Source of the DNA: a virus
Length of the DNA: 64,000 nucleotides
Reading direction: 5' to 3' (one strand)
IMG/VR virus record: IMGVR_UViG_3300025732_000019
Shown: one piece after another, positions 2,401-15,709 of the stretch
How positions within the stretch are numbered: the first letter of the stretch is position 1
Layout of the letters: each line of letters begins with the position of its first letter
Made by a program: the position numbers and the translations under genes
Notes under the pieces: model-generated
Databases searched by the model: none
What the model was told of the DNA's origin: nothing
The model's input: the letters and a program-made list of their open reading frames with translations, nothing else

Positions 2401-3177
2401 CTACTCAGCCAGCACTTCTTTCGGTCGATACCAGCGATATCGCTTCTCTTGCCATGCTTTCAATGCCACTCGAAACCGACTCACGGGAATCGCGACAATC
2501 GTACTTTCGCCAATCGACCCCACCAGAAATCCAATAATCGTACGCTGCGTCTGAGAGACTAACGCACTGCCGGAGGAACCGCCATTGACACCCGCTTGCT
2601 GCAAGACGAGAGAGTGCTGCCAGTTGATGTCATTCTGCTTGACAGGGCGATCCAGATCCAGACTGGTAACGCTGCCAGAGAAGACTTGTTTGCCAAGACC
2701 GAGCGGTGACGCAATATTCCAATACAATGCAGGGATCACTTCATGCTGCTCATCGCCGAGTGGAATGACAGGCCAGTGTTTGGTCGTCTCCACCTCAAAC
2801 ACGGCGAAGTCTTCGCCACGCGACTGGTATCCGATGAACACCGGTTCCGCAGGCCAAAACGTTTTCTCAGCATGTTCGTCGAACGTGATGAAGAACGGCG
2901 TTTCCGCAGACGCACTTAATTCTTTGTCACGATTGTCGGAGCCGATGCAGTGCGCGGCCGTGACGAATCGATACCCCGTCTTGATGCGCTCGTATGCGGT
3001 CGCCGTACACGCCATGCGCATGCTCCCGGATTGATCCTGGCTATAGAGCAAGCCCACCGCATTCTGAATTGTCGTAATGAACTCGGTATCTGACTGTCGT
3101 GATTGTGCACGACCACTCTGAGTACTCAGGAGCATCACGATCACGGCACATATCGACCATACGCGAAGATGAGACAT
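2401..3177 (-). CDS. secreted trypsin-like (S1) serine protease
   Basis: signal peptide, TAAHC, DFAV, GGSSGS catalytic motifs; AGGAG RBS before ATG 3177. Confidence 0.88.
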   Translation of the reverse strand: MSHLRVWSICAVIVMLLSTQSGRAQSRQSDTEFITTIQNAVGLLYSQDQSGSMRMACTATAYERIKTGYRFVTAAHCIGSDNRDKELSASAETPFFITFDEHAEKTFWPAEPVFIGYQSRGEDFAVFEVETTKHWPVIPLGDEQHEVIPALYWNIASPLGLGKQVFSGSVTSLDLDRPVKQNDINWQHSLVLQQAGVNGGSSGSALVSQTQRTIIGFLVGSIGESTIVAIPVSRFRVALKAWQEKRYRWYRPKEVLAE

Positions 3178-3231
3178 GAGAATTTCTCCTTGAGCATATT
3201 TAGCAGAAACGCGGTTCTCACCGCATGAATT

Positions 3232-3416
3232 CCTATAACGTGTTGATATGACAGATGTTACGGGTAGTCTATACATATTTTGCATCAATCCATCCGGGTC
3301 GATACAATAAATATATCATCACGGGTGCTCGTAAGTCGTAGAATCTACACCACTTATACGTCATCATTCGTCTGCCCGGAGTTGACATCTTCATACACAG
3401 TCACTATAATACACGC
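3232..3416 (+). promoter_or_regulatory. paired-palindrome promoter cassette A
   Basis: degenerate 27-bp palindromes at 3235 and 3331, ATACATATTTTGCAT box, TTGACA 3382, TATAAT 3405. Confidence 0.7.
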
Positions 3417-3530
3417 ATGCTTAATCATCAGTTTTCATTGACGGTATGGGATATTGTCGTACTGTTCATCGATGCGACATTCTTTGCTCTTGGGATTGGG
3501 TTTTACCTGCTACATATGGGAGTCATCTAA
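3417..3530 (+). CDS. 37-aa membrane peptide, leaderless (not in ORF track)
   Basis: ATG 6 nt after TATAAT; MLNHQFSLTVWDIVVLFIDATFFALGIGFYLLHMGVI. Confidence 0.6.
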   Translation: MLNHQFSLTVWDIVVLFIDATFFALGIGFYLLHMGVI

Positions 3531-3532
3531 TC

Positions 3533-3739
3533 ATGCATCGTCTCCGTCGCGTCTCGTCGCGATCATCAGTGCCTTCGTTTCAGTTGTTTCGTGTCGTCGA
3601 GCGGCATCCCGTCACGGGAGAGTTTGTCGTGAGTGCCTCTCTGACGCTGCGAGATGCGGAAGCGTTAGCGGATCGGTGTCTCGCGAGTCGGCCGCCGCAG
3701 TCGCGTGTACTGTATGCGGTTGAACCGATGGGTCGCTAA
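3533..3739 (+). CDS. hypothetical protein
   Basis: tightly packed ORF in early operon. Confidence 0.55.
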   Translation: MHRLRRVSSRSSVPSFQLFRVVERHPVTGEFVVSASLTLRDAEALADRCLASRPPQSRVLYAVEPMGR

Positions 3740-3750
3740 CGGAATCGCGC

Positions 3751-3978
3751 ATGTCCGCCACAGGTTCATTACTCAGTCTCAGTGAAGAGGAACTACTCTT
3801 ATTGCATGAGTTATTGACGTTTGTGATTACGCATTACGAAGGCACCGATGCTATGACGGATGACGCGCTCGATGCGTTTATGAGATTGCAACAGAAGATC
3901 AACTTTCTGTTGGAAGTGACAGCGTTTCAGCGCGCCGTGACGCTACCCCATAGTAACACGTCATCACAAGTACATTAG
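3751..3978 (+). CDS. hypothetical protein
   Basis: ORF packing; LSLSEEELLLLHEL resembles the N-terminus of 8898..9107. Confidence 0.65.
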   Translation: MSATGSLLSLSEEELLLLHELLTFVITHYEGTDAMTDDALDAFMRLQQKINFLLEVTAFQRAVTLPHSNTSSQVH

Positions 3979-3998
3979 TGAGGAGAAAAGAGATAAAG

Positions 3999-4280
3999 AT
4001 GATTCGAATGTATCAGCATATTGTGTGTGCGGATGGTGCCTCGGTGAGCATTCAGGCGGGTCGGCATATGTACTGCACTCCGCGTGATGACCGTGGCCCC
4101 TACACGCACATCGAAGCAGGGTTTCCCTCGGTGGAACCGCCCGCGTCGTGGCGCGAGTATGCGGAAGAACTCGACGCACTGACCGAGACAGTCTACGGCT
4201 ACATGCCGTTCGACTGCGTGGATGAGTTCATCAACATCCACGGTGGCATGGTGAGCGGGGAACTGCCGCAGAGAGCATAA
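3999..4280 (+). CDS. conserved phage hypothetical protein
   Basis: CADG..SIQA...YCTPR...PY..E.GFPS motif; GAGGAG RBS. Confidence 0.8.
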   Translation: MIRMYQHIVCADGASVSIQAGRHMYCTPRDDRGPYTHIEAGFPSVEPPASWREYAEELDALTETVYGYMPFDCVDEFINIHGGMVSGELPQRA

Positions 4281-4295
4281 GGAGAGGGTGAGAGT

Positions 4296-4787
4296 ATGTT
4301 TATCACACATCGCAACGGGTCGGTCATTACTGACCAGTATGCATCGGTCGCTGACGCGGTTCATGCCGGCGTGGATCTGTCGTATGCGAATCTGACGGGT
4401 GCGAATCTGACGGGTGCGGATCTGACGGGTGCGAATCTGTCGTATGCGAATCTGTCGGATGCGAATCTGACGGGTGCGAATCTGACGGGTGCGGATCTGA
4501 CGGGTGCGAATCTGTCGTATGCGAATCTGACGGGTGCGAATCTGTCGTATGCGAATCTGACGGGTGCGAATCTGACGGGTGCGGATCTGACGGGTGCGGA
4601 TCTGTCGTATGCGAATCTGTTGGGTGCGAATCTGTGGGGTGCGAATCTGGCGTCAGCACATCTGTATCGTGCGGTTCTGACGGATGCGGTTCTGACCCGT
4701 GCGAATCTGGCAGGTGCGAATCTGTTGGGTGCGACTCTGACGGGTGCGTGGACGTTTCTCGGTAATCAACTCGTGTCGTTGGCATAG
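4296..4787 (+). CDS. pentapeptide repeat protein 1
   Basis: A(N/D)Lxx repeats encoded by 15-bp tandem DNA units; AGGAG RBS. Confidence 0.95.
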   Translation: MFITHRNGSVITDQYASVADAVHAGVDLSYANLTGANLTGADLTGANLSYANLSDANLTGANLTGADLTGANLSYANLTGANLSYANLTGANLTGADLTGADLSYANLLGANLWGANLASAHLYRAVLTDAVLTRANLAGANLLGATLTGAWTFLGNQLVSLA

Positions 4788-4805
4788 AGGAGAGAGAGAG
4801 AACCC

Positions 4806-5309
4806 ATGACCATTTATCATAAGAACGGTACGGTAATTACGGATCAGTATGACAGCATCGGAGCAGCCGTCAAGGCGGGAGCGGATCTGGCAGGTGCGAC
4901 TCTGGCAGGTGCGACTCTGGCAGGTGCGGATCTGACGGCCGCGAATCTGACGAATGCGGATCTGCGGAGTGCGAATCTGCTGGGCGCGAATCTGACGAAT
5001 GCGGATCTGCTGGGCGCGAATCTGACGAATGCGAATCTGCGGGGCGCGAATCTGACGAATGCGGATCTGTGGGGTGCGGATCTGCGGAGTGCGGATCTGA
5101 CGAATGCGGATCTGTGGGGTGCGGATCTGCGGAGTGCGAATCTGCTGGGCGCGAATCTGACGAATGCGGATCTGCTGGGCGCGAATCTGACGAATGCGAA
5201 TCTGCGGGGCGCGAATCTGACGAAGGTGAATCTGTGGGGTGCGAATCTGACGAAGGTGAATCTGACGGGTGCGATCATCTGTCTGGGCAACCGCCAGGTG
5301 ACGCTGTAA
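4806..5309 (+). CDS. pentapeptide repeat protein 2 (tandem paralog)
   Basis: same repeats; shared caps HxNGxVITDQY and LGNxxVxL. Confidence 0.95.
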   Translation: MTIYHKNGTVITDQYDSIGAAVKAGADLAGATLAGATLAGADLTAANLTNADLRSANLLGANLTNADLLGANLTNANLRGANLTNADLWGADLRSADLTNADLWGADLRSANLLGANLTNADLLGANLTNANLRGANLTKVNLWGANLTKVNLTGAIICLGNRQVTL

Positions 5310-5325
5310 AAGAAGAAGAGAGAAT

Positions 5326-5589
5326 ATGATCATCACTCGCTGCTCGAACTGCGACCGCGTATTGACGACGGCACACGGGGTGCGTCTGGAAAGTGCCAAC
5401 TTCTCGTCTGCACTTCCCACGCGACCTGCGACGACGACCATCACGTATGCGTGGTGTGATGGCTGTCTTGTCGATGCGTCTGGGCAAGATCGGGAGAGTT
5501 ATACCGATACACAAGATCGCGCCAACTATCATGAAGAACAGGACACCGAACACATCGATGACGATCACACCTGCACAGATATTCGATGA
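5326..5589 (+). CDS. small Cys-containing hypothetical protein
   Basis: CSNC...WCDGC, acidic tail. Confidence 0.55.
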   Translation: MIITRCSNCDRVLTTAHGVRLESANFSSALPTRPATTTITYAWCDGCLVDASGQDRESYTDTQDRANYHEEQDTEHIDDDHTCTDIR

Positions 5590-5965
5590 GGCCTGTGGCG
5601 ATTACCTGCGCTTTCTTGAACGGGATTATCATATTGTTCAGGATTTTCAGAATATCCCTCGCGCCCATCGGCACTGTGTGTTCGTGCTGCGTCATGGTAC
5701 GTTGTTGCACTATGTGCTGCGCGTGATGCGGCACAGCGACGACGCATATACGCGCTCGGTGCATTCCTGTCTGGTGCGCCACGATCATCCACGCATGCGG
5801 TTGCGGGCGGGAGATCTCTTACGCTATGCGGGTGTGCGCACACTGCGGACGTCTGCGGTGTATGGCAACATCTTTCAGTCGGACAGCTATCTCCGGTATG
5901 CACGATGGCATGATGACGTGTCACTGACGACACCGGTGCCGAACTCGATCTCGGAGACGTGGTAA
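5558..5965 (+). CDS. hypothetical protein, divergent paralog of 7889..8233
   Basis: SVHSCLV...HP.....GDLL.......YGNIF aligns with SCHAFVV..HP....GDLLKPA...RGNVL; start uncertain. Confidence 0.7.
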   Translation: MTITPAQIFDEACGDYLRFLERDYHIVQDFQNIPRAHRHCVFVLRHGTLLHYVLRVMRHSDDAYTRSVHSCLVRHDHPRMRLRAGDLLRYAGVRTLRTSAVYGNIFQSDSYLRYARWHDDVSLTTPVPNSISETW

Positions 5966-5966
5966 C

Positions 5967-6452
5967 ATGTCATCAACCTTGACACCGCTCTTCAGTAAAG
6001 CCAGTGATCTGTGGGGCACCCCCGCAGCCGTCTTTCAGCATTATCATACGCGCTATGGGTTCACCATCGACGCGGCCGCGAATGCACAGATGACGCTGCT
6101 GCCGCGCTGGTGGGGGCCTGACTCGCGGTTGAGTACAGACGCGTTAGCCGTCTCATGGGCGGGAGAAACGTGTTGGTTGAACCCGCCGTATTCTCGCGTC
6201 AAAGACTTCACGCGCAAAGCGCGCCTCGAACAACTCGAACAGCGCGTCACCACGGTGATGCTGATTCCAAGTCGTACGGATACCGCGTATTGGCATGACT
6301 ACATTTGGAATACCGCCGCGCACACCTGGCAGCATGGCATACAGGGGCAGTTCCTCCGTGGACGATTGAAGTTTCGTGATGCGCGAGGAACATCCATGAA
6401 CCCGGCACCCTTTCCCAGTGTGGTGATCGTGTTTGACGGAGCGACCGTCTAA
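5967..6452 (+). CDS. phage N6-adenine DNA methyltransferase (T1/lambdoid Dam family)
   Basis: WxTP..F, IDAAA, WLNPPYS, LIPSRTDT, RGRLKF, APFPS motifs. Confidence 0.92.
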   Translation: MSSTLTPLFSKASDLWGTPAAVFQHYHTRYGFTIDAAANAQMTLLPRWWGPDSRLSTDALAVSWAGETCWLNPPYSRVKDFTRKARLEQLEQRVTTVMLIPSRTDTAYWHDYIWNTAAHTWQHGIQGQFLRGRLKFRDARGTSMNPAPFPSVVIVFDGATV

Positions 6453-7042
6453 TGCCCTCACGCACCATTACGTCAGCACATATTCGTCAGTATGCCACGT
6501 CAGAGGACAGAGTGGATCATTATGATGATGCGATCGAACTGCGCCGATTCGTGTCTCTTCTGCATGCACACGTCTTTCCGAATCCGCAGCAGCGCGAGAT
6601 CCGCATCAAACCGTATGGAAAGACCGGCGTCGATATCGGCGTCTTCGACCCCCGCTCCCGTGCGCTGGTCTGTGCGTTTGACGTCGAACGCTGTATGATA
6701 TGGCAAGCGGATTGGCCCGCGCATTGGCGGTGTCTCAGTTTTCTCGCACGAAAAGAGAAGTACTTGCGGTTTCCGCAGTTTGGCATGGTCTGGTTCAATC
6801 GCTCGGTCACGACGTGCGCCGTCGCATGGAAAGAGGATCTGGTGTCCGCGCCTCTCGTCACGCGTCGATTCTCCCGTCGTACCTACACCGATCAGGTGCG
6901 AGAACTTCCATGTGCGGCCGGGACCTTGATCGGGCAGACGTTTGGTGTGCGTGAAACAGCACTGTTTACCAACCGTCGGACGTTCGATTTCACACAATCC
7001 GACGCACGACCCGCTCGGGAACAGATGCCCGTAACTCGTTGA
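6452..7042 (+). CDS. hypothetical protein, possible PD-(D/E)xK nuclease
   Basis: TAATG-coupled to the MTase; GVDIG...FDVER motif. Confidence 0.5.
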   Translation: MPSRTITSAHIRQYATSEDRVDHYDDAIELRRFVSLLHAHVFPNPQQREIRIKPYGKTGVDIGVFDPRSRALVCAFDVERCMIWQADWPAHWRCLSFLARKEKYLRFPQFGMVWFNRSVTTCAVAWKEDLVSAPLVTRRFSRRTYTDQVRELPCAAGTLIGQTFGVRETALFTNRRTFDFTQSDARPAREQMPVTR

Positions 7043-7202
7043 CAATCAAGCACATACGGGAATCGCATGCATGCAGCGCATCCTGCGGCAGACATTCATA
7101 CAATCTTTGCATCCCAAACCCTCCTGTAACCCCTTGATAATCAAGCACTTACACGCATCCTCGATTTGACACTGCTGGCAGAATCTCCTATACTGTATGC
7201 AG
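7028..7202 (+). promoter_or_regulatory. paired-palindrome promoter cassette B
   Basis: palindromes at 7031 and 7126, CATACAATCTTTGCAT box, TTGACA 7166, TATACT 7189. Confidence 0.85.
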
Positions 7203-7391
7203 ATGATGACTCGTAAACATTTTGTGCTGATTGCACACCTCTTCAAATCCACGAAGCCTGACGCGTCGAACACTGTCGCTATGCGGCAGTGGGAATCCAC
7301 CGTCATGCAGTTCGCGCATGCGGGTGTCACGATGAATCCGCGTTTCAATGCCACTCGGTTTCTCAAGGCGTGTGATCTGTGGCTGCGCTAA
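7203..7391 (+). CDS. small phage protein (MTRKHF...NPRFN..RFLKAC family)
   Basis: recognisable small phage family; starts directly after the promoter. Confidence 0.75.
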   Translation: MMTRKHFVLIAHLFKSTKPDASNTVAMRQWESTVMQFAHAGVTMNPRFNATRFLKACDLWLR

Positions 7392-7393
7392 AC

Positions 7394-7636
7394 ATGCAGA
7401 CGGAAACCGTGAGCGCATTTCTTGCCCGTGGTGGGCGCATCGTGCGGTGTGCGCCGTCGAAGCGCCCCGCGTATCGACCGACAAAGCTGCTCAACATGAA
7501 GCGCGGTCATAACCTGACCGGTCGCATCGTGCGCGTCGCGAATGCGCTGCCACCCTCGGATGGCCCTCGCGTGTCGTCACTGGAGCGATTGTCACAGTAT
7601 CAGTGCAAGTACCGCCACTTACAGCGGATGCAGTAG
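7394..7636 (+). CDS. small basic phage protein
   Basis: ETV.AFLARGG.I..C motif. Confidence 0.7.
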   Translation: MQTETVSAFLARGGRIVRCAPSKRPAYRPTKLLNMKRGHNLTGRIVRVANALPPSDGPRVSSLERLSQYQCKYRHLQRMQ

Positions 7637-7650
7637 AGGAGCAGAGAAAG

Positions 7651-7920
7651 ATGTATCGTTCAAACGTAGAGTGGTGGTGGAGTTGTGAAGCGGTGGCCGT
7701 CGGTGTCAATAAGCACGGGATTGCACAGGATATCGACGTCGCGACCCGAGAACCGGGACGCAAGAACATCGCCCGGCGCAGACTGCGCATGTATTTGGAT
7801 GACGCCGCGCGGGCCACATGCGCGGAGCATGGATTGACGTTTGTGGGGTATCGTGAGGAGCCGAGTTATGACGGTGAGGGGATGGAATATGACGAATATT
7901 ATGACGAATATGACATTTGA
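7651..7920 (+). CDS. hypothetical protein
   Basis: GAGGAG RBS, acidic tail. Confidence 0.65.
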   Translation: MYRSNVEWWWSCEAVAVGVNKHGIAQDIDVATREPGRKNIARRRLRMYLDDAARATCAEHGLTFVGYREEPSYDGEGMEYDEYYDEYDI

Positions 7921-8233
7921 ACTCAAAACGGCGATTGATCAGTACCTCGCCGCGTGTGAAGCGGATTACACGCGCATGTCGTATGCTTCCATGCGGCAGA
8001 TTCGGTTTATACTCGATCCCGGTCGGAAGTTCATCCGCATCTGGCGCCAGTTCGATGGCGAGTCGAGTCGGTCGTGCCATGCGTTTGTGGTGCTCACGCA
8101 TCCAAAGTTTCGCACTGGTGACTTGCTGAAGCCCGCGACGTGGAAAGCGCCCGCAATGAACGCGGCGCGTGGGAATGTGCTGGAACCGTCGTCGTATCGT
8201 GCGCAGTGGACGGGCCCCGAGTATTTGCGCTAA
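7889..8233 (+). CDS. conserved T4-like phage early protein
   Basis: GRKFIRI...GDLLKPATWKAPA.NAARGNV...WTGP.YL family motif. Confidence 0.8.
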   Translation: MTNIMTNMTFELKTAIDQYLAACEADYTRMSYASMRQIRFILDPGRKFIRIWRQFDGESSRSCHAFVVLTHPKFRTGDLLKPATWKAPAMNAARGNVLEPSSYRAQWTGPEYLR

Positions 8234-8258
8234 GAGAACCATAGAGGAGTCGAGAGAG

Positions 8259-8708
8259 ATGATTACCACAGCGTTTGCGTTTGCAGGTCGTGCGTCGTAC
8301 GTGATCGAGAACCCGAAAGGGGAATCCGTCACTGTCAAGTTGAGTCGGTCGAAGGCGGGGAACGTGAATCCCTACACCGGCCAGCCGTACGCGGAAACGT
8401 TCTTTGTCTCGCTGCGACACAATAACGCGCCGTGGATGTTTGTCGGAAAACTCGATGCGCAGCGGCGCAAGATTCTCGCGACGTCAAAGGTGGAAGCCTA
8501 CTGCGACCTGGTGGAAGCCTACTGGCAGTCGCCGGCGGGTGCGCGAGCGATTGCCATCGCGCAGTGGTCGCTGGATCTCATCCATGCACGGGCGACGGTG
8601 CCTGCGGGCTATCGTCTCGCGCATACCGGTCGCTGCGGAAAGTGCGGGAAGTTGCTCCGGGATGCGGAAAGCATTGCGCTCGGATTAGGGCCGGTGTGCC
8701 GCGGGTGA
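8259..8708 (+). CDS. DUF6011-like Zn-finger protein
   Basis: C-terminal GRCGKCGKLL...ESI..GLGPVC. Confidence 0.8.
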   Translation: MITTAFAFAGRASYVIENPKGESVTVKLSRSKAGNVNPYTGQPYAETFFVSLRHNNAPWMFVGKLDAQRRKILATSKVEAYCDLVEAYWQSPAGARAIAIAQWSLDLIHARATVPAGYRLAHTGRCGKCGKLLRDAESIALGLGPVCRG

Positions 8709-8724
8709 TTCCCCGTCGCACAGA

Positions 8725-8897
8725 CCCGTAACGCGTTGCACATCACGCACATACGGGAATCGTATGCATGGTGCGCATGGTGCTCGACGATGGCATACAA
8801 TCTTTGCATGTCAAAACTTCCTGTAACTCCTTGAAAATCAAGCACTTACAGATACCCCTGATTTGACAGGTTCGCGGGTTTCGCATACACTATACCT
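8725..8897 (+). promoter_or_regulatory. paired-palindrome promoter cassette C
   Basis: palindromes at 8728 and 8823, box 8794-8809, TTGACA 8863, TACACT 8886, leaderless ATG 8898. Confidence 0.85.
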
Positions 8898-9107
8898 ATG
8901 AGTAACGACATGACTGGCACGTTGCATCTCACGGAAGACGAACTGACGTTCCTGCTGGAACTAGTGCACAACGAGATGTACACTGCGAATACGAACATCG
9001 TGCTTGCGGAGAATCTCGCGGCTCGGCTGTCTCGCGATCTGCACCATGTGCGGATGGAGAACGAAGACGCAGAGGCCGTCGCTGCATGGGATGCGGTGTC
9101 GTGGTAA
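8898..9107 (+). CDS. small acidic hypothetical protein, leaderless
   Basis: ATG 6 nt after the -10 box. Confidence 0.7.
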   Translation: MSNDMTGTLHLTEDELTFLLELVHNEMYTANTNIVLAENLAARLSRDLHHVRMENEDAEAVAAWDAVSW

Positions 9108-9250
9108 CGCGCATCGATGCCATGTGCGCATGGTTCGGATGCGAGCCATAGAATGTTCGCATCCCAAACTCGTCTGTAAGTCGTTGATAATCAAGCACTT
9201 ACAGACACCCAACATTTGACAGATTGTTTGAAAGGGAGTACACTTTAGGT
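9104..9250 (+). promoter_or_regulatory. promoter cassette D (first palindrome deleted)
   Basis: box 9147-9162, palindrome at 9176, TTGACA 9216, TACACT 9239, ATG 9251. Confidence 0.85.
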
Positions 9251-10582
9251 ATGAAAAATGCTCGGTATGCAGTGATTCTTGAGATTGCGCGTCAAAACAA
9301 CGGTATGGTGCGGTGTGACGATCCCGCGTTGATTGCGGGTTTGGGTGATACCGCGTATCGGTTGCCGACCTATATCGGCGACATTCGTCGCAAAGAGGGA
9401 TTGACAGTCGAACCCCTCAAGTCAGGTCGTACCGTCGTCGCGTACACCTTCCCGGCGTTTGCAGACGGCTCCGCGCCGGTTTCCGCACCTGTCGTCGCAG
9501 TCAAGACGGCAAAGCCCGCAAAAGGGCCGAAAGCCGCTCCTGTGGTGGTTCCTGCGGTCGATGTGGAATCGCTGGTCGCGAGTACTGACAACGCGTCAAG
9601 TCTGTCACTGACGGCGAGTGCCGCGAGTTCGAAGTCGGAGATTACCGCATTACTGCGAGAACTCGCGACGGGTGACAGTGCACTGGTGAAGGTGCCTGCC
9701 AAGCTGCGCGAGTTTGTGCCCTTCGGTCAGTATGACGTCGTGCATCGGATTGTCTCGTCTCGCGTCTTCTGCCCGATCTTCATCACCGGACATTCCGGAA
9801 ACGGCAAGACGCTGCAAGTCGAACAGGCGTGCGCGGCGGCGAACCGCGAGTTTTTGCGCGTGAACGTGACGGCTGAGACGGATGAGGATGCGCTGATCGG
9901 TGGATTCCGTCTCAAGAACGGCAATACCGTGTTTGAGTTTGGCCCTGTCGTACAGGGTATGATTCGCGGTGCGGTGCTCCTGCTCGACGAAATCGATCTT
10001 GCGGGGCCGAAGATTCTCTGCTTGCAGTCGCTGATGGAAGGCAAGCCGATGGTGATCAAGCCGCTCGGCATCACGATTGCGCCTGCGCCGGGGTTCACCG
10101 TCGTCGCGACCGCCAACACGAAGGGTCGCGGGTCTGACGATGGCAAGTATATCGGGACCGGCCCGCTCAATGAAGCGTTTCTCGAACGGTTTCCGATGAC
10201 AATCGAGCAGGAATATCCGGGCGCCGCTGTGGAGAAGAAGATTCTCACGAAGACGTACGAGTCGTATGGCGGTGTCGTAACGGATGGTGTCCTGACGTTT
10301 GCGGATACGCTCACGAAGTGGGCAGACGCGATTCGTGCGACGTTCAACGAAGGGGGTATCGAGGATGTCATCTCGACGCGCCGTCTGTGCCACATCATGC
10401 GCACGTATCAGATTTTCGGTGATGAATCGAAGGTGCTGGCGCTCTGCTTGAACCGCTTCGACAAGTCGGTGCAAGCGAAGTTCTTGGATCTGTATGCCAA
10501 GTTGTCGCCGAGCGCAGCGGGTGCGGCGGCCACGTCCGTCAGTGACGATCCTCGCGTCATTGCTGCCCCGGTGAACTTCTAA
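9251..10582 (+). CDS. MoxR/CbbQ/CobS-like AAA+ ATPase with N-terminal wHTH-like domain
   Basis: Walker A GHSGNGKT, Walker B LLLDEID, ATANTKG, NEAFLERF, ISTRRL. Confidence 0.92.
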   Translation: MKNARYAVILEIARQNNGMVRCDDPALIAGLGDTAYRLPTYIGDIRRKEGLTVEPLKSGRTVVAYTFPAFADGSAPVSAPVVAVKTAKPAKGPKAAPVVVPAVDVESLVASTDNASSLSLTASAASSKSEITALLRELATGDSALVKVPAKLREFVPFGQYDVVHRIVSSRVFCPIFITGHSGNGKTLQVEQACAAANREFLRVNVTAETDEDALIGGFRLKNGNTVFEFGPVVQGMIRGAVLLLDEIDLAGPKILCLQSLMEGKPMVIKPLGITIAPAPGFTVVATANTKGRGSDDGKYIGTGPLNEAFLERFPMTIEQEYPGAAVEKKILTKTYESYGGVVTDGVLTFADTLTKWADAIRATFNEGGIEDVISTRRLCHIMRTYQIFGDESKVLALCLNRFDKSVQAKFLDLYAKLSPSAAGAAATSVSDDPRVIAAPVNF

Positions 10583-10599
10583 TCGAAAGGGATCCCCAC

Positions 10600-10878
10600 A
10601 TGCATCTGACACCAGAAACACTGAAACTCTACGATCTCGTGGCCTCGCAGATCAATACGCTCGCGTGGACATGCTTGCTGGCGTATGTCGCACGGCTCAC
10701 GCAGCAGTACCTGATGCACCGTTTGACGGTGCTGCAGCATGGGATTCTCGAAGCGGTGAGTGATTGCGGGTGTGCGCCGCACACGGATACCGATGCGACA
10801 GCGCCCGGGTCGTCCACCGGGACGAATGCGATTGGATTCCACCATGCGGTCGAGGAACCCGATGAGGATGACGACTAA
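10600..10878 (+). CDS. hypothetical protein
   Basis: ORF following the AAA gene with AAGGGA RBS. Confidence 0.55.
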   Translation: MHLTPETLKLYDLVASQINTLAWTCLLAYVARLTQQYLMHRLTVLQHGILEAVSDCGCAPHTDTDATAPGSSTGTNAIGFHHAVEEPDEDDD

Positions 10879-10885
10879 CCGCTCT

Positions 10886-11061
10886 CCCGTAAGTGCTTGA
10901 AATACAAGCATTTACGGGGATGTATGCGTCACACGCATACTGGTCGGGAGAGTATAGAAAGTTTGCATACTAAAATACCCCGTAAGTCGTTGAAAATGCA
11001 GGGGTTACGGATATCCCCGGTTTGACAGGGATGCCGGTTTCGGAATATACTATACGTATCA
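10886..11061 (+). promoter_or_regulatory. paired-palindrome promoter cassette E
   Basis: palindromes at 10889 and 10982, TATAGAAAGTTTGCAT box, TTGACA 11022, TATACT 11046. Confidence 0.85.
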
Positions 11062-13359
11062 ATGATGATGAATCACTCCTCCTCTCCCACGAACTGGTCA
11101 AAACATGTGCAGTTGGATGATCAGAAGCGTGGCCTTGCGCGTCTCATGGCGCGTGAGAATATCACCGTCGAACATGGTGCATACGAGACAGCTTCCTTTG
11201 ACGTCGAGACTCGCGTGTTACGGCTCCCGCTGTGGGACAATGTGACGCTCGATCAGTATGACCTCCTGATTGGTCATGAAGTCGGTCACGCGTTGTATAG
11301 CGACGATTTGTCGTTTATTGACGATTGCAAAGCCGCTCCCGGTTTGCATACCTTCATTAACGTGCTTGAGGATGTGCGCATTGAGCGCCGCATCAAGGAT
11401 GCGTTTCCTGGCATGCAGGGTGCGTTTCAGCGCGGCTACCGTGACTTCTTCGAACACGGCCCGCTGTTTCAGTTGACGAAGCCGGTTGCGGAATACAGCT
11501 TCATTGACCGCATTAACATCCATTACAAGATTGGTGCGCACGTGACGGTACCGTTCACGGATGATGAACGTGCGATTCTCGCGAAGGTCGACGCCACGCG
11601 TACGATGGGTGACGTCATTGCGCTGGCCAAGGAACTGTACGGCGCTGCCAAGTCTGAACAGAAGAAGCAGAATCCTGAGTCGGGATCGCAGTCGTCGAAG
11701 CCGTCTTCTGACGAAACGACTGGCCAGTCGCCGACGGCGAAGTCGTCGGATTCAGAGTCTAATTCAGAGTCGGACTCAGAGTCTAATTCAGAGTCGGATT
11801 CAGAGTCGGACTCAGAGTCTAATTCAAAGTCGGATTCAGAGTCTAATTCAGAGTCGGATTCAGAGTCGGATTCAGAGTCGGATTCAGAGTCGGAATCGAG
11901 TTCGGATTCAGAGTCGGATTCAGAGTCGGAATCGAGTTCGGATGCGACGTCAGAATCGGATGTGACGTCGGATGCGCCGCATGCGGAAACGGATATGGCG
12001 AACGCCGCTGCCATGAAGACGATGCAGTCTGCGACGTCTGACGTGCGCACCGTGACGCATGTGCCGCTGACGAAGAGTGAAGCGGATGCCTACACCGTGA
12101 GTGTCGCGGACGTCGTGCGCGAAGCGGTGCGGATCGAAACGCAGTATGCCACGCGTGCGACGAGCATCACGGCATCGCTGGAAACGCTGACGCGTCAGTA
12201 TGCACCGACTGCCGCGCACATGGCGCGAGAGTTCGAACGTCGCAAGAGCGCCAAGCAGTTGGAACGTGCGCGAGTCGCGACGACGGGTCGTCTGAACCTG
12301 AAGAAGTTGCCGTTCTATCAGTTCCGTGAAGATTTGTTCCAGCAAGTGACGATTCTTCCGAACGGCCAGTCACACGGTTTGATGCTCCTGATCGACGGTT
12401 CCGGCAGTATGTCGGGTGTGTTTCCGGATGTCATCGAGCAGGTGTTTCTCTTCGGATTGTTCGCCAAGCAGGTGCGCATTCCGGTGCAAGCGTTTGTCTT
12501 TCAGACGTCGTATCACAGTCCGTTGATGCCGAACGCGCAGCGATTGATGCCGCGTGCGGTGCAGTTGGTGACAGTCTTGGATACGACGTCGAAGGTGCCG
12601 ATCGCTGCGCAGTTGCGCAGTCTTGCGCAGTTGCATTGCGCGTTCTCGGGATTCGACGCGCATCTCGCGCCGTATGTGCGTCTCGCGGCCACGCCGCTCT
12701 ACGGTGGCATGCTCGTCATGGAAACGCATGTCCTGCGCATGCGCGAGTCGCTGGGCTTGCAAAAGATGACAGTCATGGTGCTGACGGATGGTGAAGACTC
12801 CGACGGTCTGTATGCGGGTGAGCAGCGCATCTCGTCGTCTCCGGGGGCGGCTCGCGTGATCGTGCGCGACACGCTGACGCATCGCACGTTTGTGGGGTTC
12901 ACAGACGCGCCGGATACGTATTGGGGATACACGACGGATCGACACCTGCTGAACCGTCTGATGCATCATGTTTATACGGTGGGCCTCGGTGTCTCCCTGA
13001 TTCGCTTGTATATCGGTCGCGACTCGGATTGCCGTAGTCATCGTGCCGTCGGGACGATGGCGAGCGCGTTGGGCTCGTTGACGGATGCCAAGGATGTGTA
13101 CCAAGTCGCCGCGCCGTACGGTGCGCGTCTCGCGGATGACAAGATTGCTGCGGTGACACGGAAGGATCTGCCGAGCCTGTTTGCGGATACCGCGATTATC
13201 GTGTCGAACCGCAAGCTGGATATGCAGGATGACACGTTTGAAGATCTCGATACTTCGACGATGACGAATCGCCGAATCATGAGTGCCTTTACGAAGAGTA
13301 ACGTAGCGGCCGCTCAAAATCGCGTCTTAATCAATGCGGTGATGCCGTTCATTGCGTAA
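11062..13359 (+). CDS. CobT-like VWA protein with N-terminal HExxH domain and Ser/Asp/Glu linker
   Basis: HEVGH and NVLEDVRIE; MIDAS DGSGS...TP...LTDGE; partner of the AAA ATPase. Confidence 0.9.
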   Translation: MMMNHSSSPTNWSKHVQLDDQKRGLARLMARENITVEHGAYETASFDVETRVLRLPLWDNVTLDQYDLLIGHEVGHALYSDDLSFIDDCKAAPGLHTFINVLEDVRIERRIKDAFPGMQGAFQRGYRDFFEHGPLFQLTKPVAEYSFIDRINIHYKIGAHVTVPFTDDERAILAKVDATRTMGDVIALAKELYGAAKSEQKKQNPESGSQSSKPSSDETTGQSPTAKSSDSESNSESDSESNSESDSESDSESNSKSDSESNSESDSESDSESDSESESSSDSESDSESESSSDATSESDVTSDAPHAETDMANAAAMKTMQSATSDVRTVTHVPLTKSEADAYTVSVADVVREAVRIETQYATRATSITASLETLTRQYAPTAAHMAREFERRKSAKQLERARVATTGRLNLKKLPFYQFREDLFQQVTILPNGQSHGLMLLIDGSGSMSGVFPDVIEQVFLFGLFAKQVRIPVQAFVFQTSYHSPLMPNAQRLMPRAVQLVTVLDTTSKVPIAAQLRSLAQLHCAFSGFDAHLAPYVRLAATPLYGGMLVMETHVLRMRESLGLQKMTVMVLTDGEDSDGLYAGEQRISSSPGAARVIVRDTLTHRTFVGFTDAPDTYWGYTTDRHLLNRLMHHVYTVGLGVSLIRLYIGRDSDCRSHRAVGTMASALGSLTDAKDVYQVAAPYGARLADDKIAAVTRKDLPSLFADTAIIVSNRKLDMQDDTFEDLDTSTMTNRRIMSAFTKSNVAAAQNRVLINAVMPFIA
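11746..11972 (+). repeat. 12-bp tandem repeats (TCGGATTCAGAG / TCTAATTCAGAG) encoding SDSE/SNSE linker
   Basis: direct reading. Confidence 0.9.
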
Positions 13360-13398
13360 GACGCGTGCATTACTCACAACACACACAAGGAACAGACA

Positions 13399-13683
13399 AT
13401 GCAGAAGATGTTTGAAAAAGTCGCGGATGTGATCAAGTCGAAGCAGGGCATGATCGCGGTCAATGATCCGGATCTCGATGCGGTGCTGATGGTGAATGGA
13501 AAGTCTACGAAGTATCGCTTGGCCACCTATATGTGGGAGATTCGCACGAAGATGAATCTTGCGGTGGTGCCGGTGCGCACCGGTCGCACCGTGACGAGCT
13601 ATGAGGTGCCGGCATTCAAGGTGGTCGCAGATGCGACAGTGCCAGCGAGTGTCGCGGAGTCTGCCGTCGCTGCGAGTCTCTGA
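13399..13683 (+). CDS. stand-alone wHTH-like protein homologous to the AAA N-terminus
   Basis: GM...NDP.L...YRLATY..EIR.K..L.V.P...GRTV..Y..PAF shared with the 9251 protein. Confidence 0.85.
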   Translation: MQKMFEKVADVIKSKQGMIAVNDPDLDAVLMVNGKSTKYRLATYMWEIRTKMNLAVVPVRTGRTVTSYEVPAFKVVADATVPASVAESAVAASL

Positions 13684-13706
13684 GACGTCTCTGAGAGGCT
13701 GCGGGT

Positions 13707-13732
13707 GTGGGGGAGTCTTCGGATTCTCCCAC
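13707..13732 (+). terminator. C(UUCG)G hairpin after the operon
   Basis: GTGGGGGAGTC-TTCG-GATTCTCCCAC. Confidence 0.7.
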
Positions 13733-13750
13733 GCGTTAAACCAACCCAAC

Positions 13751-13800
13751 CTCCACCAGTCTCCACCAATCTCCACAGGCCTCCAATCATCTCCACCATT
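13751..13800 (+). repeat. five 10-bp-period CTCCA repeats
   Basis: CTCCACCAGT CTCCACCAAT CTCCACAGGC CTCCAATCAT CTCCACCATT. Confidence 0.85.
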
Positions 13801-14047
13801 ACGATTCCACAAACACGGGGAATATGCATCACATCGCATGCGTCATCGATCACACGGATCCGTCAAATGCCAGAAATCTCGAACATTTTTCTGTCAATTC
13901 TGCCTGTCATCGTATCTGTTCCATGAGATAATGGTTTCGTTCGCATGAGTGCGAACAACGAACAGTGAACACCCATGGCACTGCGGTGCCTTTTTGACTG
14001 ATCTGTTCGATGTACACCAAACACCCGAAAGAAAAAAGCACCGTATC

Positions 14048-15709
14048 ATGAAGACGTTATACGACACGACAAGTAGTAAAAACGAATTCGGCTTTACGAA
14101 GAATCTGTACACGGTTGATACCCTGTATCAGATGTGGAAAGAGAAAACGCTGATCCCTCGACCTATTGAGTTTCAACGAAAACTCGTCGCGACAGATGAA
14201 TGGAAAGGCGGCATCGTCTATACCGCGTTGAACCGTACCGCATCACTGACGCTGACCGCGAGTTGGACGCGCCTCCCGGATAATCGTCTCGTGCTTGAAG
14301 TGCTTGACGGTCAGCAGCGCATCACCAGCTTGTTTCAGTACTTGGAAAACAGAAAGACGATTGTCTTGCGCAAGCTGTCAGATGCATCAGCAGACGGGAA
14401 GAACCGTTCCGTGACGAAGTTGAATGCGCTGCCTGTGCCTTTGAGAGATGCCGGCATCACCGTCACCGTCGATCCGCGCAAAACTGGAGGCATCGAGCAG
14501 TTGGCGTCATACGAGCATTACGGCACGGAATTGGCACGCCAGTTGCGTGAGACGCCGATCGAAGTCGAAGAATATGGTGAAGACACGACGAACGAAGAAA
14601 AAGCGGAAATCTTCTTCATGAAGAATAACACCAACGACCTCGTCGCACAGGAAAAGCGCAATGGCGTTCGAGGCTGGGTGGCGCGAATCGTGCGTGGCAT
14701 GGTGCGCACGGGTACGGGAAGCGTGACGCCTGATACGGAGATCGAACCCTATAAGATTCCTGTGTCACGGTTCATCAATGAAGGTGCGAACGACACCGGC
14801 ATCATGTCACATCTCACGAACGACAGACTGGAACTGGAAGAGTGTCTCGCTCGACTGTTTGTGTTCGAAAAGCTGAAGACACCGTTTGCGACGAACACGG
14901 GGTATGCGTCAGATGACGAGATTACCAAGATGTATCGCGACATCGCGTATAAGGGCGACGAAGACATGGAATCCGACACGTCGCAAGATGCGCGCCGATC
15001 GTGCGAAACGATGCGAAAAGCGATCGAAAGGCGGTTCAAACATATGGAGACGATTATTCCGCCGTCGAAGCAGCACGATGCACAACGATTCGGAAAGTTC
15101 TCCAATACGCGAAGGAATAGCAAAGTGTTTTCCTATTGGACGACATTGTATGTATTCCTGATGTGGCTCGATCAGGAACACAAAGGCTGGAAGTTCGGCA
15201 ACGAATGCAGTGCAGACGACATCACGGATGCGTTCATGAACGCGTTCAAGAAGCTCACGGTGTCTCCGAAAGACACGAATCCCTATCCCGATTGGAACGA
15301 GACGGATGCGGGCACCGGCAAAGCGACGATGTTTTCCCGCTTGCTCGGCAAGTATGCGCCGCACGAACTCGCGACGAAGTGTGAAATGCTGTTGACGGCG
15401 ATTCAGTTGGAAAATGCGAATGTGATTCGATTGTTAGACCCGAAACGCAACTTCTCGTTTGCGGACAAGGTTCGGAAATGGAAGGAGCAAGGCGAGCGGT
15501 GTGCATACACCAACAAGTTCTTGGTCTTGGATCACGCTGTAGCGGGTCATAAGATTGCTCACAGCAAGGGTGGGCGAACGACGTACGACAATCTTGTCGT
15601 CATCAGTCGATCCGTCAATCAGAGGATGGGTGATATGTCATGGGATGACTTTAGAGACGCGCAGGCGACGAAGCGCACAGCGACACGTGCGGCGACACGT
15701 GCAGCGTAA
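14048..15709 (+). CDS. DUF262-HNH (GmrSD-like) endonuclease
   Basis: FQR, LDGQQR, IF..xN motifs; C-terminal GH.IAHSKGGRT..DNL....VN. Confidence 0.85.
   Translation: MKTLYDTTSSKNEFGFTKNLYTVDTLYQMWKEKTLIPRPIEFQRKLVATDEWKGGIVYTALNRTASLTLTASWTRLPDNRLVLEVLDGQQRITSLFQYLENRKTIVLRKLSDASADGKNRSVTKLNALPVPLRDAGITVTVDPRKTGGIEQLASYEHYGTELARQLRETPIEVEEYGEDTTNEEKAEIFFMKNNTNDLVAQEKRNGVRGWVARIVRGMVRTGTGSVTPDTEIEPYKIPVSRFINEGANDTGIMSHLTNDRLELEECLARLFVFEKLKTPFATNTGYASDDEITKMYRDIAYKGDEDMESDTSQDARRSCETMRKAIERRFKHMETIIPPSKQHDAQRFGKFSNTRRNSKVFSYWTTLYVFLMWLDQEHKGWKFGNECSADDITDAFMNAFKKLTVSPKDTNPYPDWNETDAGTGKATMFSRLLGKYAPHELATKCEMLLTAIQLENANVIRLLDPKRNFSFADKVRKWKEQGERCAYTNKFLVLDHAVAGHKIAHSKGGRTTYDNLVVISRSVNQRMGDMSWDDFRDAQATKRTATRAATRAA

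Follow-up and report, generated by a model that had tools for sequence, protein, structure and literature searches.

A DNA stretch of 64,000 nucleotides from an uncultured T4-like phage, called the window hereafter at its full length, raises the question of why one small domain occurs twice within a single locus, once at the N-terminus of an AAA+ ATPase and once as a free protein encoded behind the gene of a VWA protein. Three open reading frames (ORFs) of the plus strand are concerned, and they lie where an earlier note on this DNA had placed them: the AAA+ gene, first of its operon, at 9251-10582, the gene of a CobT-like HExxH-VWA adaptor of 765 residues at 11062-13359, and that of a 94-residue protein, last of the CobT-like operon, at 13399-13683. 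The ATPase is taken to start at ATG 9251, the position equivalent to the ATG at which its L001 homologue begins, rather than at the TTG 9224 of the ORF list. Between the ATPase and VWA genes, a 92-residue ORF of unassigned function (10600-10878, plus strand) occupies the second place of the AAA+ operon; it is kept in lineages L001/L002 (E 2e-22) and, weakly, in L095 (E 5.5e-4). The VWA gene and the gene of the 94-residue protein are separated by 39 nt, which contain an AAGGAA ribosome-binding site and in which no promoter was found.

Judged from their sequences, the genes of the ATPase and of the HExxH-VWA protein are the cobS/cobT pair already known from phages; such cobST clusters are reported to be widely distributed among tailed viruses, with cobT frequently misannotated as a peptidase (PMC8651126). 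The CobS-like, MoxR-class core of the ATPase (9671-10582, plus strand) contains a Walker A (GHSGNGKT) and a Walker B (LLLDEID) motif, both invariant across six homologues. Residues 161-432 match the viral CobS-like profile (phrog_249, annotated as porphyrin biosynthesis) at 2.1e-99, the Pfam AAA_5 match (7.6e-18) lies above the cut-off, and residues ~157-424 share 57-61% identity with cyanophage CobS. In the PDB, the AAA domains of midasin are matched at 3e-32 and CobS more weakly, at 1.8e-16. A cellular cobaltochelatase CobS equivalog was considered for the ATPase and rejected, since TIGR01650 gives 58.7 bits where the equivalog cut-off demands 558.55.

The CobT-like protein matches phrog_459 (annotated as peptidase) end to end, residues 20-765 covering positions 5-736 of the 736-position profile at 1e-122, and both large proteins are full-length members of the viral families. 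Its N-domain possesses HExGH (nt 11275-11289) and EDxRIE motifs, invariant in eight homologues, and is followed by an acidic Ser/Asp/Glu repeat linker with 12-nt tandem repeats (about nt 11650-12010) and by a VWA domain with the MIDAS motif DGSGS (nt 12394-12408). The DxSxS...T...D ligands of the latter are complete, D445, S447, S449, T544 and D576 being invariant in eight homologues. Since the Pfam VWA_2 match is only weak and local (E 0.055), the VWA domain was assigned from these motifs and the PHROG profile. No Pfam CobT match was obtained for the protein, a phmmer search against the PDB gave no significant match, the solved CobT (9uka) included, and the CobT-like profile reaches CobT only at E 0.0048, in a match confined to the acidic low-complexity stretch. 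The MoxR-type ATPase with a VWA partner postulated in the earlier note is thus borne out by the AAA_5 class of the one and the intact VWA/MIDAS of the other.

The pair arrangement and the succession of HExxH motif, acidic linker and VWA domain are also those of the viral cobS/cobT genes, including those of cyanophages. The cellular CobST of CobNST and the Mg-chelatase BchI/BchD similarly associate a MoxR-class AAA+ ring with an adaptor in which an acidic linker connects the N-domain to a C-terminal VWA/MIDAS domain, and the docking logic, in which the adaptor plugs the ring, is likely the same. Unlike cellular CobST, however, the phage system comprises an ATPase which is not the CobS equivalog and a CobT-like protein in which HExGH is invariant; no CobN is in view, and the winged-helix parts have no counterpart in the cellular motor. 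RavA-ViaA, CbbQ-CbbO and NorQ-NorD, which act on defined enzyme complexes, also consist of an AAA_5 ATPase adjoining a VWA partner, and the LARA domain of RavA offers a precedent for an extra targeting domain on a MoxR ATPase. None of these three pairs is known to possess a targeting domain of winged-helix type or a third subunit consisting of a small winged helix.

Instead of the N-region of ~110 residues usual in the PHROG profile, the ATPase of the window carries an N-terminal domain, predicted as a winged helix (9251-9460, plus strand), which is connected to the AAA+ core by a flexible linker of ~70 residues, rich in Ala, Pro, Val, Lys and Ser (9461-9670, plus strand), that does not align between lineages. 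This domain is a paralogue of the free 94-residue protein. In BLASTP, residues 8-82 of the small protein align with ~75 residues at the start of the AAA+ protein (30/75 identities, 40%; E 1e-15, far above chance), and a profile built from the family recovers the free and the fused copies at 4e-29 and 2e-25, respectively. The earlier note had aligned the ATPase N-terminus with the whole small protein; the homology stands, but the alignment is limited to some 75 residues of its front part. The free protein is made of a basic domain (residues 1-75) and a low-complexity tail comprising the last ~19 residues (76-94).

According to profile searches, the ~72-residue winged-helix domain is a new, previously unnamed family of about 85 representative clusters, standing outside Pfam and PHROGs. 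None of 47 members has a PHROG match at E < 0.001, no NCBIfam match was found for the family, and the best Pfam matches of the 47 members, to the Rep3 WH2 domain and to HTH_91, are restricted to two members and weak (E 0.006-0.04, with HTH_91 at 0.006). The domain has a mean pI of 9.8 and a net charge of +5.8, whereas the tail is acidic (mean -4.3) and disordered, with no conserved motif found among the family members. In 66-100% of the 47 members, a basic residue occupies the positions of R40 and R49 (helix 3) and of R60, R63 and K64 (wing); these are retained in the fused copies, which carry a lower charge (+2) than the free ones.

The AlphaFold2 model of the 94-residue protein (pLDDT 77) predicts a winged helix of topology H1-b1-H2-H3-b2-wing-b3 (H-b-H-H-b-b), with helices at residues 4-14, 24-30 and 38-51 and strands at 18-20, 57-61 and 64-69. 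The top 50 structural neighbours given by VIA are all winged helices, with Z-scores of at most 7.2 that fall within the stated background of the tool; the best of them, DrrB (Z 7.2, rmsd 2.2 over 64 residues), has itself a background-level score. Foldseek neighbours are likewise all winged helices, the best E-value being a weak 0.083. The HTH-like nature proposed beforehand is in agreement with this predicted fold and with the conserved basic residues of helix 3 and wing, while the structural scores are weak.

The grouping of the three genes into a triad finds support in gene linkage, the free copy being a conserved companion of the ATPase/VWA pair across relatives. Its gene lies 22-97 nt 3' of the CobT-like gene in the window, L001, L008/L218, L010, L011, L095, L096 and L097, and closes the CobT operon in seven lineages; in L012 and L013, it occurs within the same block. 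The adjoining CobT proteins share as little as 29% identity with that of the window (L097). In two contexts, L005 (a 70%-identical homologue) and L098 (a distant member), the CobT-like gene is absent beside the winged-helix gene. A stable stem-loop followed by a conserved CGTTAA ends the operon of the window (13705-13734, plus strand; -23.1 kcal/mol, z -4.1), and equivalent hairpins of differing sequence (-20 to -44 kcal/mol) occur 3' of the winged-helix gene in six other lineages. Downstream of the hairpin of the window stand five tandem repeats of ~10 nt (TCTCCACCAn; 13746-13798, plus strand; TRF score 48-57), and other lineages show different short repeats in the same position.

The fusion of the domain to the ATPase was found only in the window, L001/L002, L218 and three more 90% clusters (P0109-P0111). 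Sister lineages possess, at the same place of the ATPase, an unrelated N-domain of ~55 residues, also with a predicted winged-helix-like topology, the structural neighbours of which include MCM and Rpa2 WH. The best explanation is that, in the narrow lineage of the window, the winged-helix paralogue took the place of another small domain at the N-terminus of the ATPase. Among 80 other phage CobS-like loci sampled in IMG/VR, 69 of them with a CobT-like gene, none contains the winged-helix domain, either on the ATPase or as a small gene after cobT. The terminal position of the free gene in the CobT operon and the fusion within a narrow clade are new here.

By Rosetta stone logic, this fusion argues for a functional link between the domain and the motor. 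We give about an even chance (roughly 0.5) to the winged-helix domain being a targeting or adaptor module of a CobST-like motor. Beyond the observed homology, predicted fold, gene linkage and narrowly distributed fusion, we infer binding partners, nucleic-acid binding and a remodelling role as follows. The triad would consist of the widespread phage cobS/cobT module supplemented with a basic winged-helix part of ~72 residues bearing an acidic disordered tail. A hexameric ATPase would display six winged-helix heads on its flexible linkers, and these heads may keep the motor bound to a target that is most likely a nucleic acid or a protein complex sitting on nucleic acid. The CobT-like protein would dock on the ring and turn its MIDAS site towards the target in the manner of cellular CobST, where the N-domain of CobT attaches to the CobS ring and ATP binding moves the VWA domain to the pore (preprints 10.64898/2026.10.09.757910, 10.64898/2026.07.21.739949). 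The free winged-helix protein may bind the same kind of ligand and either work with CobT as an adaptor or mark the target. A comparable layout, a small DNA-reader-like domain followed by a linker, a ring ATPase and a pore partner, is provided by the McrB N-domain of McrBC and the winged helices of Orc1/Cdc6, MCM and RuvB, but as an analogy only, these proteins having no sequence relation to the phage ATPase. The widespread phage cobST genes would then hint at an action on a DNA- or protein-bound target, and not only at vitamin B12 synthesis.

Against such a targeting or adaptor module speak the background-level structural matches (Z <= 7.2; Foldseek E >= 0.08), the 80/80 other CobS-like loci which work without the domain, the two contexts lacking a neighbouring CobT-like gene and the less basic character of the fused copies. 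In addition, winged helices mediate protein-protein contacts as often as DNA contacts, and the neighbours of the model include the protein-binding winged helices of cullin (WHB), ESCRT-II and ScpB. These neighbours, together with the MCM and Rpa2 WH domains retrieved for the sister N-domain, would equally suit a pure protein-protein module that binds no nucleic acid, in which the acidic tail of the free protein is captured by the CobT-like MIDAS as a substrate or adaptor and the fused copy brings the same protein, of host or phage origin, to the ring. MIDAS sites bind carboxylates, as established for integrins and midasin, and tails are acidic in most members; the LARA domain of RavA, moreover, sets a precedent for a protein-binding targeting domain on a MoxR ATPase. 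We nevertheless regard this explanation as rather improbable, because the tail has no conserved motif and the conserved residues are the basic ones of helix 3 and wing, the usual nucleic-acid face.

DUF6011, AAA+, CobT-like and winged-helix genes form a syntenic block in the early region of this clade and, since gene order is conserved block-wise with DUF6011 travelling along, the adjacency may partly reflect synteny rather than function. The free protein could accordingly be an independent small DNA-binding or regulatory early factor, e.g., an autoregulator or a tandem-repeat binder, whose place after cobT is a matter of gene order only and whose copy on the ATPase is an incidental accretion. 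Its occurrence without a neighbouring CobT in L005 and L098, the lineage-specific tandem repeats 3' of the gene in several lineages and the weak Rep3 WH2 and HTH_91 matches point in this direction. Such a factor is unlikely, however, given that L097 keeps the CobT/winged-helix adjacency with a CobT of low identity and no ATPase gene within 7-10 kb, that the two genes have no promoter between them and share a terminal hairpin in seven lineages, and that, if no functional link existed, the fusion to the partner ATPase would be difficult to account for. The tandem repeats are also low-scoring, and the octamer TCTCCACC is not enriched across the window as a whole.

As previously proposed, palindrome cassettes drive both operons. 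Upstream of the AAA+ operon, a 31-bp imperfect palindrome (CTGTAAGTCGTTGA-TAA-TCAAGCACTTACAG; 9174-9204, plus strand) ends 11 bp before the TTGACA box of a sigma-70-like promoter (TTGACA-17-TACACT; 9216-9244, plus strand; 10/12 consensus matches), with 6 nt separating its -10 box from ATG 9251, so that the AAA+ mRNA is probably leaderless. A distal palindrome or stem-loop (CCGTAAGTGCTTGAAATACAAGCATTTACGG; 10887-10917, plus strand) immediately follows the stop codon of the 92-residue ORF. The CobT-like/winged-helix operon is preceded by a degenerate proximal palindrome (10979-11011, plus strand), ending 10 bp before the TTGACA box of a promoter with 11/12 matches (TTGACA-18-TATACT; 11022-11051). 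Four copies in all are promoter-proximal, with 10-13 bp between their ends and the TTGACA-N17/18-TAnACT sequences. The core of the 31-bp palindrome also occurs in L001, L010, L011, L095 and L218, being located in L010, L011 and L095 also 5' of the CobT-like and/or AAA+ genes.

The earlier note had seen in the domain a candidate reader of these palindromes, i.e., a sequence-specific protein, free and ATPase-tethered, which recognizes the 27-31-bp palindromes ~10-13 bp before the -35 box and regulates early cassettes or recruits the remodeller. The basic domain with its conserved Arg on helix 3 and wing would suit this role, and the fused-copy lineages are the richest in sampled palindromes (nine copies in the window, six in L218, five in L001). 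The distributions of domain and palindromes are, however, largely independent, the very outcome the earlier note had held to speak against its idea: no palindrome was found in 11-20 kb around the family genes of L012, L013, L096, L097 and L098 in spite of a conserved helix 3, IMG/VR contains the core at 166 sites, spread over at least 119 other stretches whose flanks (1.06 Mb) encode no family member, and five multi-copy palindrome records (two of them 83-86% complete) gave no family match. Probably, therefore, the winged-helix domain does not read the palindromes next to these promoters, a role made very improbable by this independence and by promoters that are already near-consensus for sigma-70.

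The cassettes rather fit the PeSL class of T4-like phages, a terminator/promoter class associating a stem-loop with an early promoter (PMC2839356, PMC4122927), so that no phage-encoded reader is needed. Matched by layout, they correspond to the PeSL description (PMC4122927), with a repeated intergenic stem-loop followed by a near-consensus sigma-70-type early promoter in the variable early region of a T4-like phage. In the PeSLs described in the literature (Arbiol et al. 2010, PMC2839356; Comeau et al. 2014, PMC4122927), the stems are short and specific to their lineage, whereas the stem-loop of the window is a long, sequence-conserved palindrome of 27-31 bp, often paired ~95 bp apart, with a core common to many unrelated viral contigs.

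The locus comprises three plus-strand genes in two transcription units, encoding a CobS-like AAA+ ATPase (9251-10582), a CobT-like HExxH-VWA protein of 765 aa (11062-13359) and a free, predicted winged-helix protein of 94 aa (13399-13683). The ORF list gives a TTG at 9224 as the start of the ATPase gene, and the homologue in the related contig L001 starts at an ATG equivalent to 9251. Both units are served by near-consensus sigma-70 promoters (9216-9244 and 11022-11051), each preceded on its 5' side by an imperfect palindrome of 27-31 bp, in agreement with the earlier note, which had placed palindrome cassettes ahead of both operons. No promoter was found in the interval between the 765-aa and the 94-aa genes, a spacing of 39 nt in which an AAGGAA site is present. 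The -10 boxes end 6 nt upstream of the ATG codons at 8898 and 9251, and 10 nt upstream of that at 11062 (8863-8900, 9216-9253 and 11022-11064), with an identical geometry ahead of the ATPase gene of L001 (~742-779). Since these boxes sit so near the start codons, the mRNA of the first gene of each unit is probably leaderless or nearly so.

The N-terminus of the ATPase and residues 8-82 of the 94-aa protein share 40% identity over 75 positions (BLASTP, E 1e-15), and the duplicated domain described in the earlier note is thus real; the shared domain leaves out the last ~19 residues of the free protein, which are a low-complexity tail. When 1.84 billion representatives were searched with a profile of the domain, 85 clusters were retrieved, 25 of them at E 1e-10 or better, nearly all corresponding to stand-alone proteins of 90-125 aa from metagenomes. 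None of 47 family members matches a PHROG, Pfam yields scattered matches at E 0.006 or worse, NCBIfam returns nothing for the window's own 94-aa protein, and nucleotide and tblastn searches of phage records gave no relative of the region or of this protein. The nearest clusters in the ESM Atlas are unnamed, and the Atlas's own model is poor (pLDDT 0.41). These proteins define a new small family of about 85 clusters, devoid of any Pfam or PHROG entry.

The AlphaFold2 model of the free protein, built on an 8-sequence alignment, displays an H1-b-H2-H3-b-hairpin topology (pLDDT 77) followed by a disordered tail, and the neighbours retrieved by Foldseek and VIA-align are winged helices throughout. 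They comprise DNA-binding domains (SSV1 F-112, Stf76, the BirA N-domain, OmpR/PhoB, MarR and ArsR types) together with protein-binding ones (cullin WHB, ESCRT-II, ScpB), all at scores of background level (Foldseek E 0.083 or more, VIA Z 7.2 or less). Assignment of the predicted structure to the winged-helix fold class is reasonably supported; the function of the HTH-like DNA-binding domain initially proposed is not. In the family as a whole, a strongly basic domain (mean pI 9.8, net charge +5.8) is followed by an acidic tail (mean -4.3). The best-conserved charged positions, R40 and R49 in helix 3 and R60, R63 and K64 in the wing, are retained in the fused copies.

The genomic contexts of the free gene were taken from independent contigs obtained by exact look-ups of family members, because the scans for related loci gave no confirmed locus in viral_contigs (A2) and none in metagenome_contigs (A7), and A3 contained no segment of sufficient conservation for a scan. 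The free gene lies directly 3' of the CobT-like gene in the window, in L001-L004, in L008, L009 and L218 (the last a close relative of the window), and in L010, L011, L095, L096 and L097; in L097 the CobT-like protein is 29% identical to that of the window (A6) and no ATPase gene occurs within 7-10 kb. L012 and L013/L014 show the arrangement CobT ... AAA ... DUF6011 ... winged helix, within 8 kb. Two exceptions were encountered, namely L005, with a 70%-identical winged-helix homologue preceded by a partial ORF that is not CobT-like, and L098, with a distant family member that has no adjoining CobT-like gene. Among the 80 best CobS-like loci from IMG/VR, the ATPase occurs in all 80 and a CobT-like gene in 69, and the domain in none; the third component is hence restricted to a single cobST phage clade. 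A protein with a DUF6011 C-terminal motif (8169-8708 in the window) accompanies the cobS/cobT/winged-helix block in all lineages examined (the window, L010, L011, L095, L012, L013 and L218); in L012 and L013 its gene precedes that of the winged helix by two positions.

Downstream of the free gene, seven lineages contain a hairpin that is very stable (-20 to -44 kcal/mol, z -3.9 to -7.9) but differs in sequence between them, and past it a conserved CGTTAA (window 13705-13798; L001 5205-5300; L008 2236-2370; L010 9345-9480; L011 9992-10061; L095 10378-10500; L096 10362-10408), so that the winged-helix gene is the last of its unit. In several of these lineages, short tandem repeats peculiar to the lineage come next: five of ~10 nt (TCTCCACCAn) in the window, three of 17 nt in L010 and three of GACCCGCTGTCTCC in L095. 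Hairpin and repeats could represent an operon-end terminator or processing site combined with a protein-binding array, and this region could offer an alternative site for the winged-helix protein.

The fused copy has a narrower distribution, being recognized by the family HMM only in the window, L001/L002 and L218; a search of longer proteins added three 90% clusters of 440-447 aa carrying the fused domain. It is tethered to the ATPase core by a flexible, Ala/Pro-rich linker of ~70 aa. Sister lineages (L010, L011, L013, L095 and L096) possess a different domain of ~55 aa at the same position, for which no homology with the winged-helix family is detectable (hhalign probability 0.3%). This sister domain is also predicted to adopt an H-b-H-H-b-b arrangement, and its weak fold neighbours (Z 4.7 or less) are mostly winged helices (MCM, Rpa2, cullin). 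In L012 the N-domain is absent. Because a fused winged helix, a different domain or none occurs there depending on the lineage, the ATPase N-terminus is an exchangeable small module on a flexible linker, replaced in the window's lineage by a paralogue of the operon's own winged-helix protein. A domain tree built on 78 columns places the fused copies in a separate clade (100/99), with the deeper forks unresolved. The free copies from these phages do not group as sister to that clade, and a recent in-genome duplication is therefore rejected as the origin of the fusion. The locus illustrates in a clean way how a MoxR ATPase may have its N-domain swapped. The joining of one gene's domain to the protein encoded by a linked gene is a classical sign of shared function, and the fusion found here may reflect a common function of the ATPase and the winged-helix protein.

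Pairs of cobS and cobT are among the commonest "auxiliary" genes of large phages and belong to the core genes of T4-like cyanophages; the window's pair are members of these viral cobST families. The profiles recognizing the ATPase core are Pfam AAA_5 (7.6e-18) and PHROG 249 "porphyrin biosynthesis" (2.1e-99), and the CobS proteins of T4-like cyanophages are 57-61% identical to residues ~157-424, while no phage record covers the first ~140 residues. As an equivalog of the cellular enzyme it is rejected by TIGR01650 (58.7 bits vs a cut-off of 558.55). PHROG 459 "peptidase" covers the 765-aa protein end to end (1e-122). Eight homologues, when aligned, show an invariant HExGH in the N-domain with EDxRIE further downstream, a long acidic Ser/Asp/Glu linker and a complete MIDAS (D445-x-S447-x-S449, T544, D576); outside the low-complexity linker, no significant match to the solved CobT was found. 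Both the catalytic core of the viral CobS-like ring ATPase and the MIDAS of the CobT-like adaptor are intact. The linker (11650-12010) is made of 12-nt tandem repeats encoding (S-D/E-S-E/N)n, with a length and sequence that vary in every lineage; because of this construction, matches to the staphylococcal SD-repeat adhesins (MSCRAMM/Sdr) and to Nop14/BUD22 are artefacts of the Ser/Asp repeats. In L002 (2455-4976) the CobT-like gene is broken into two overlapping fragments with three minus-strand gene calls between them, which reflects either an assembly chimera or a disrupted gene, and L096 contains a run of N inside its CobT-like gene.

The mechanistic frame adopted for the viral triad is the cellular CobST motor described in two 2026 preprints (10.64898/2026.10.09.757910, 10.64898/2026.07.21.739949), in which the CobS ring is bound by the CobT N-domain and the VWA domain shifts to the ring pore upon ATP binding. 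Transposed to the phage, where a small basic protein of predicted winged-helix fold is conserved and co-transcribed with the adaptor and a paralogous copy is carried by the ATPase on its ~70-aa linker, the winged-helix heads would serve as targeting modules that hold the motor on a nucleic acid or nucleoprotein target; the free protein would hold the adaptor on the same target, and the VWA/MIDAS adaptor would engage it for ATP-driven remodelling. The probability that the winged helix is a functional partner or targeting module of the CobST-like motor is put at about 0.5, with about even odds, within that reading, between a nucleic acid and a protein as ligand. The triad as a whole would work in the manner of the MoxR-VWA chaperones, and its architecture may be likened, by analogy only, to that of the McrB-type AAA+ machines with a tethered reader. 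The novelty lies in a winged-helix family that had no name, in the conserved position of its gene as the closing one of the cobT operon, and in the exchange of N-domains from which the fusion arose. A small and easily purified winged-helix protein provides a bait for the target of phage CobST.

A bolder reading concerns the purpose of the motor itself. Phage cobS/cobT have been assumed, without experiments, to raise host cobalamin synthesis via a hijacked CobN (PMC8651126). In this clade the ATPase bears interchangeable winged-helix-type heads and a basic winged-helix protein closes the CobT operon, which suggests another target or a further one. A more far-reaching possibility, considered unlikely, is that phage cobS/cobT are not (only) cobalamin helpers: they would form a MoxR/VWA remodeller whose exchangeable winged-helix modules and free winged-helix subunit direct it to a host or phage complex bound to nucleic acid, for example a nucleoid or the machinery of transcription, replication or defence. 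If this holds, the clade would provide the first means of getting at what viral CobST truly acts on.

In the earlier note the shared domain was a candidate reader of the palindromes, and a distribution independent of them had been named beforehand as a refutation of that idea. Copies of YGTAAGT...ACTTACR number nine in the window, five in L001, six in L218, one in L010, two to three in L011 and two in L095. In L012, L013, L096, L097 and L098, the 11-20 kb surrounding the winged-helix gene contain no such palindrome, and the winged-helix proteins encoded there keep the same helix-3 motif. Conversely, scanning IMG/VR with the 18-base palindrome core GTAAGTnnTTGnnnnnCAAnnACTTAC, which in the window lies at 7028-7172, 8725-8869, 9126-9222 and 10887-11028, located it far beyond the window's phage clade, in at least 119 stretches with at least 166 sites (L099-L217). 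Among the matches listed, the stretches have a mean G+C of 41% (range 30 to 73%), and 1.06 Mb of their flanks contain no member of the winged-helix family; nor do five multi-copy records, of which two are 83-86% complete and which may be fragments. Since the domain occurs without a palindrome nearby and the palindrome without the domain, the two distributions are largely independent, and it is highly improbable that the palindromes are the cognate site of the domain; a tempting but unsupported link is thereby removed. The strong sequence conservation of the palindrome across diverse viral contigs stands out.

The palindromes are better explained as units of the PeSL (promoter-early stem-loop) type. 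In each cassette a stem-loop comes with a near-consensus early promoter; this unit recurs within a T4-like phage's variable early region and fits the published PeSL class (PMC2839356, PMC4122927). Among the matches listed, multiple copies and pairs are frequent, and G+C-rich arms often flank the sites and lengthen the stem; TTGAC is found within 25 nt at only 20 of the 166 sites listed. The outermost pair is C..G in 5 cases, T..A in 6, T..G in 3 and C..A in 1, a covariation too weak to discriminate between a hairpin and a dimer site. Because Rfam gave nothing over 3000-14200 at E up to 1, neither the palindromes nor the hairpin is a catalogued RNA.

Directly 3' of the triad, a 586-aa ORF (13949-15709) shows a weak match to GmrSD_N (DUF262; E 3.7e-6, below the Pfam cut-off), a DGQQR motif and a C-terminus that looks HNH-like by eye, and may correspond to a phage-borne GmrSD-like nuclease; L008, L009 and L218 encode a ParB_N protein at the equivalent place. 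Upstream, at 4224-5300, two ORFs (4296-4787 and 4806-5309) contain long arrays with a 15-nt period, totalling over 50 copies. As the arrays read in frame as pentapeptide repeats (A-N/D-L-x-G), the phage encodes pentapeptide-repeat proteins, the fold of which is that of DNA-mimic proteins such as Qnr and MfpA.
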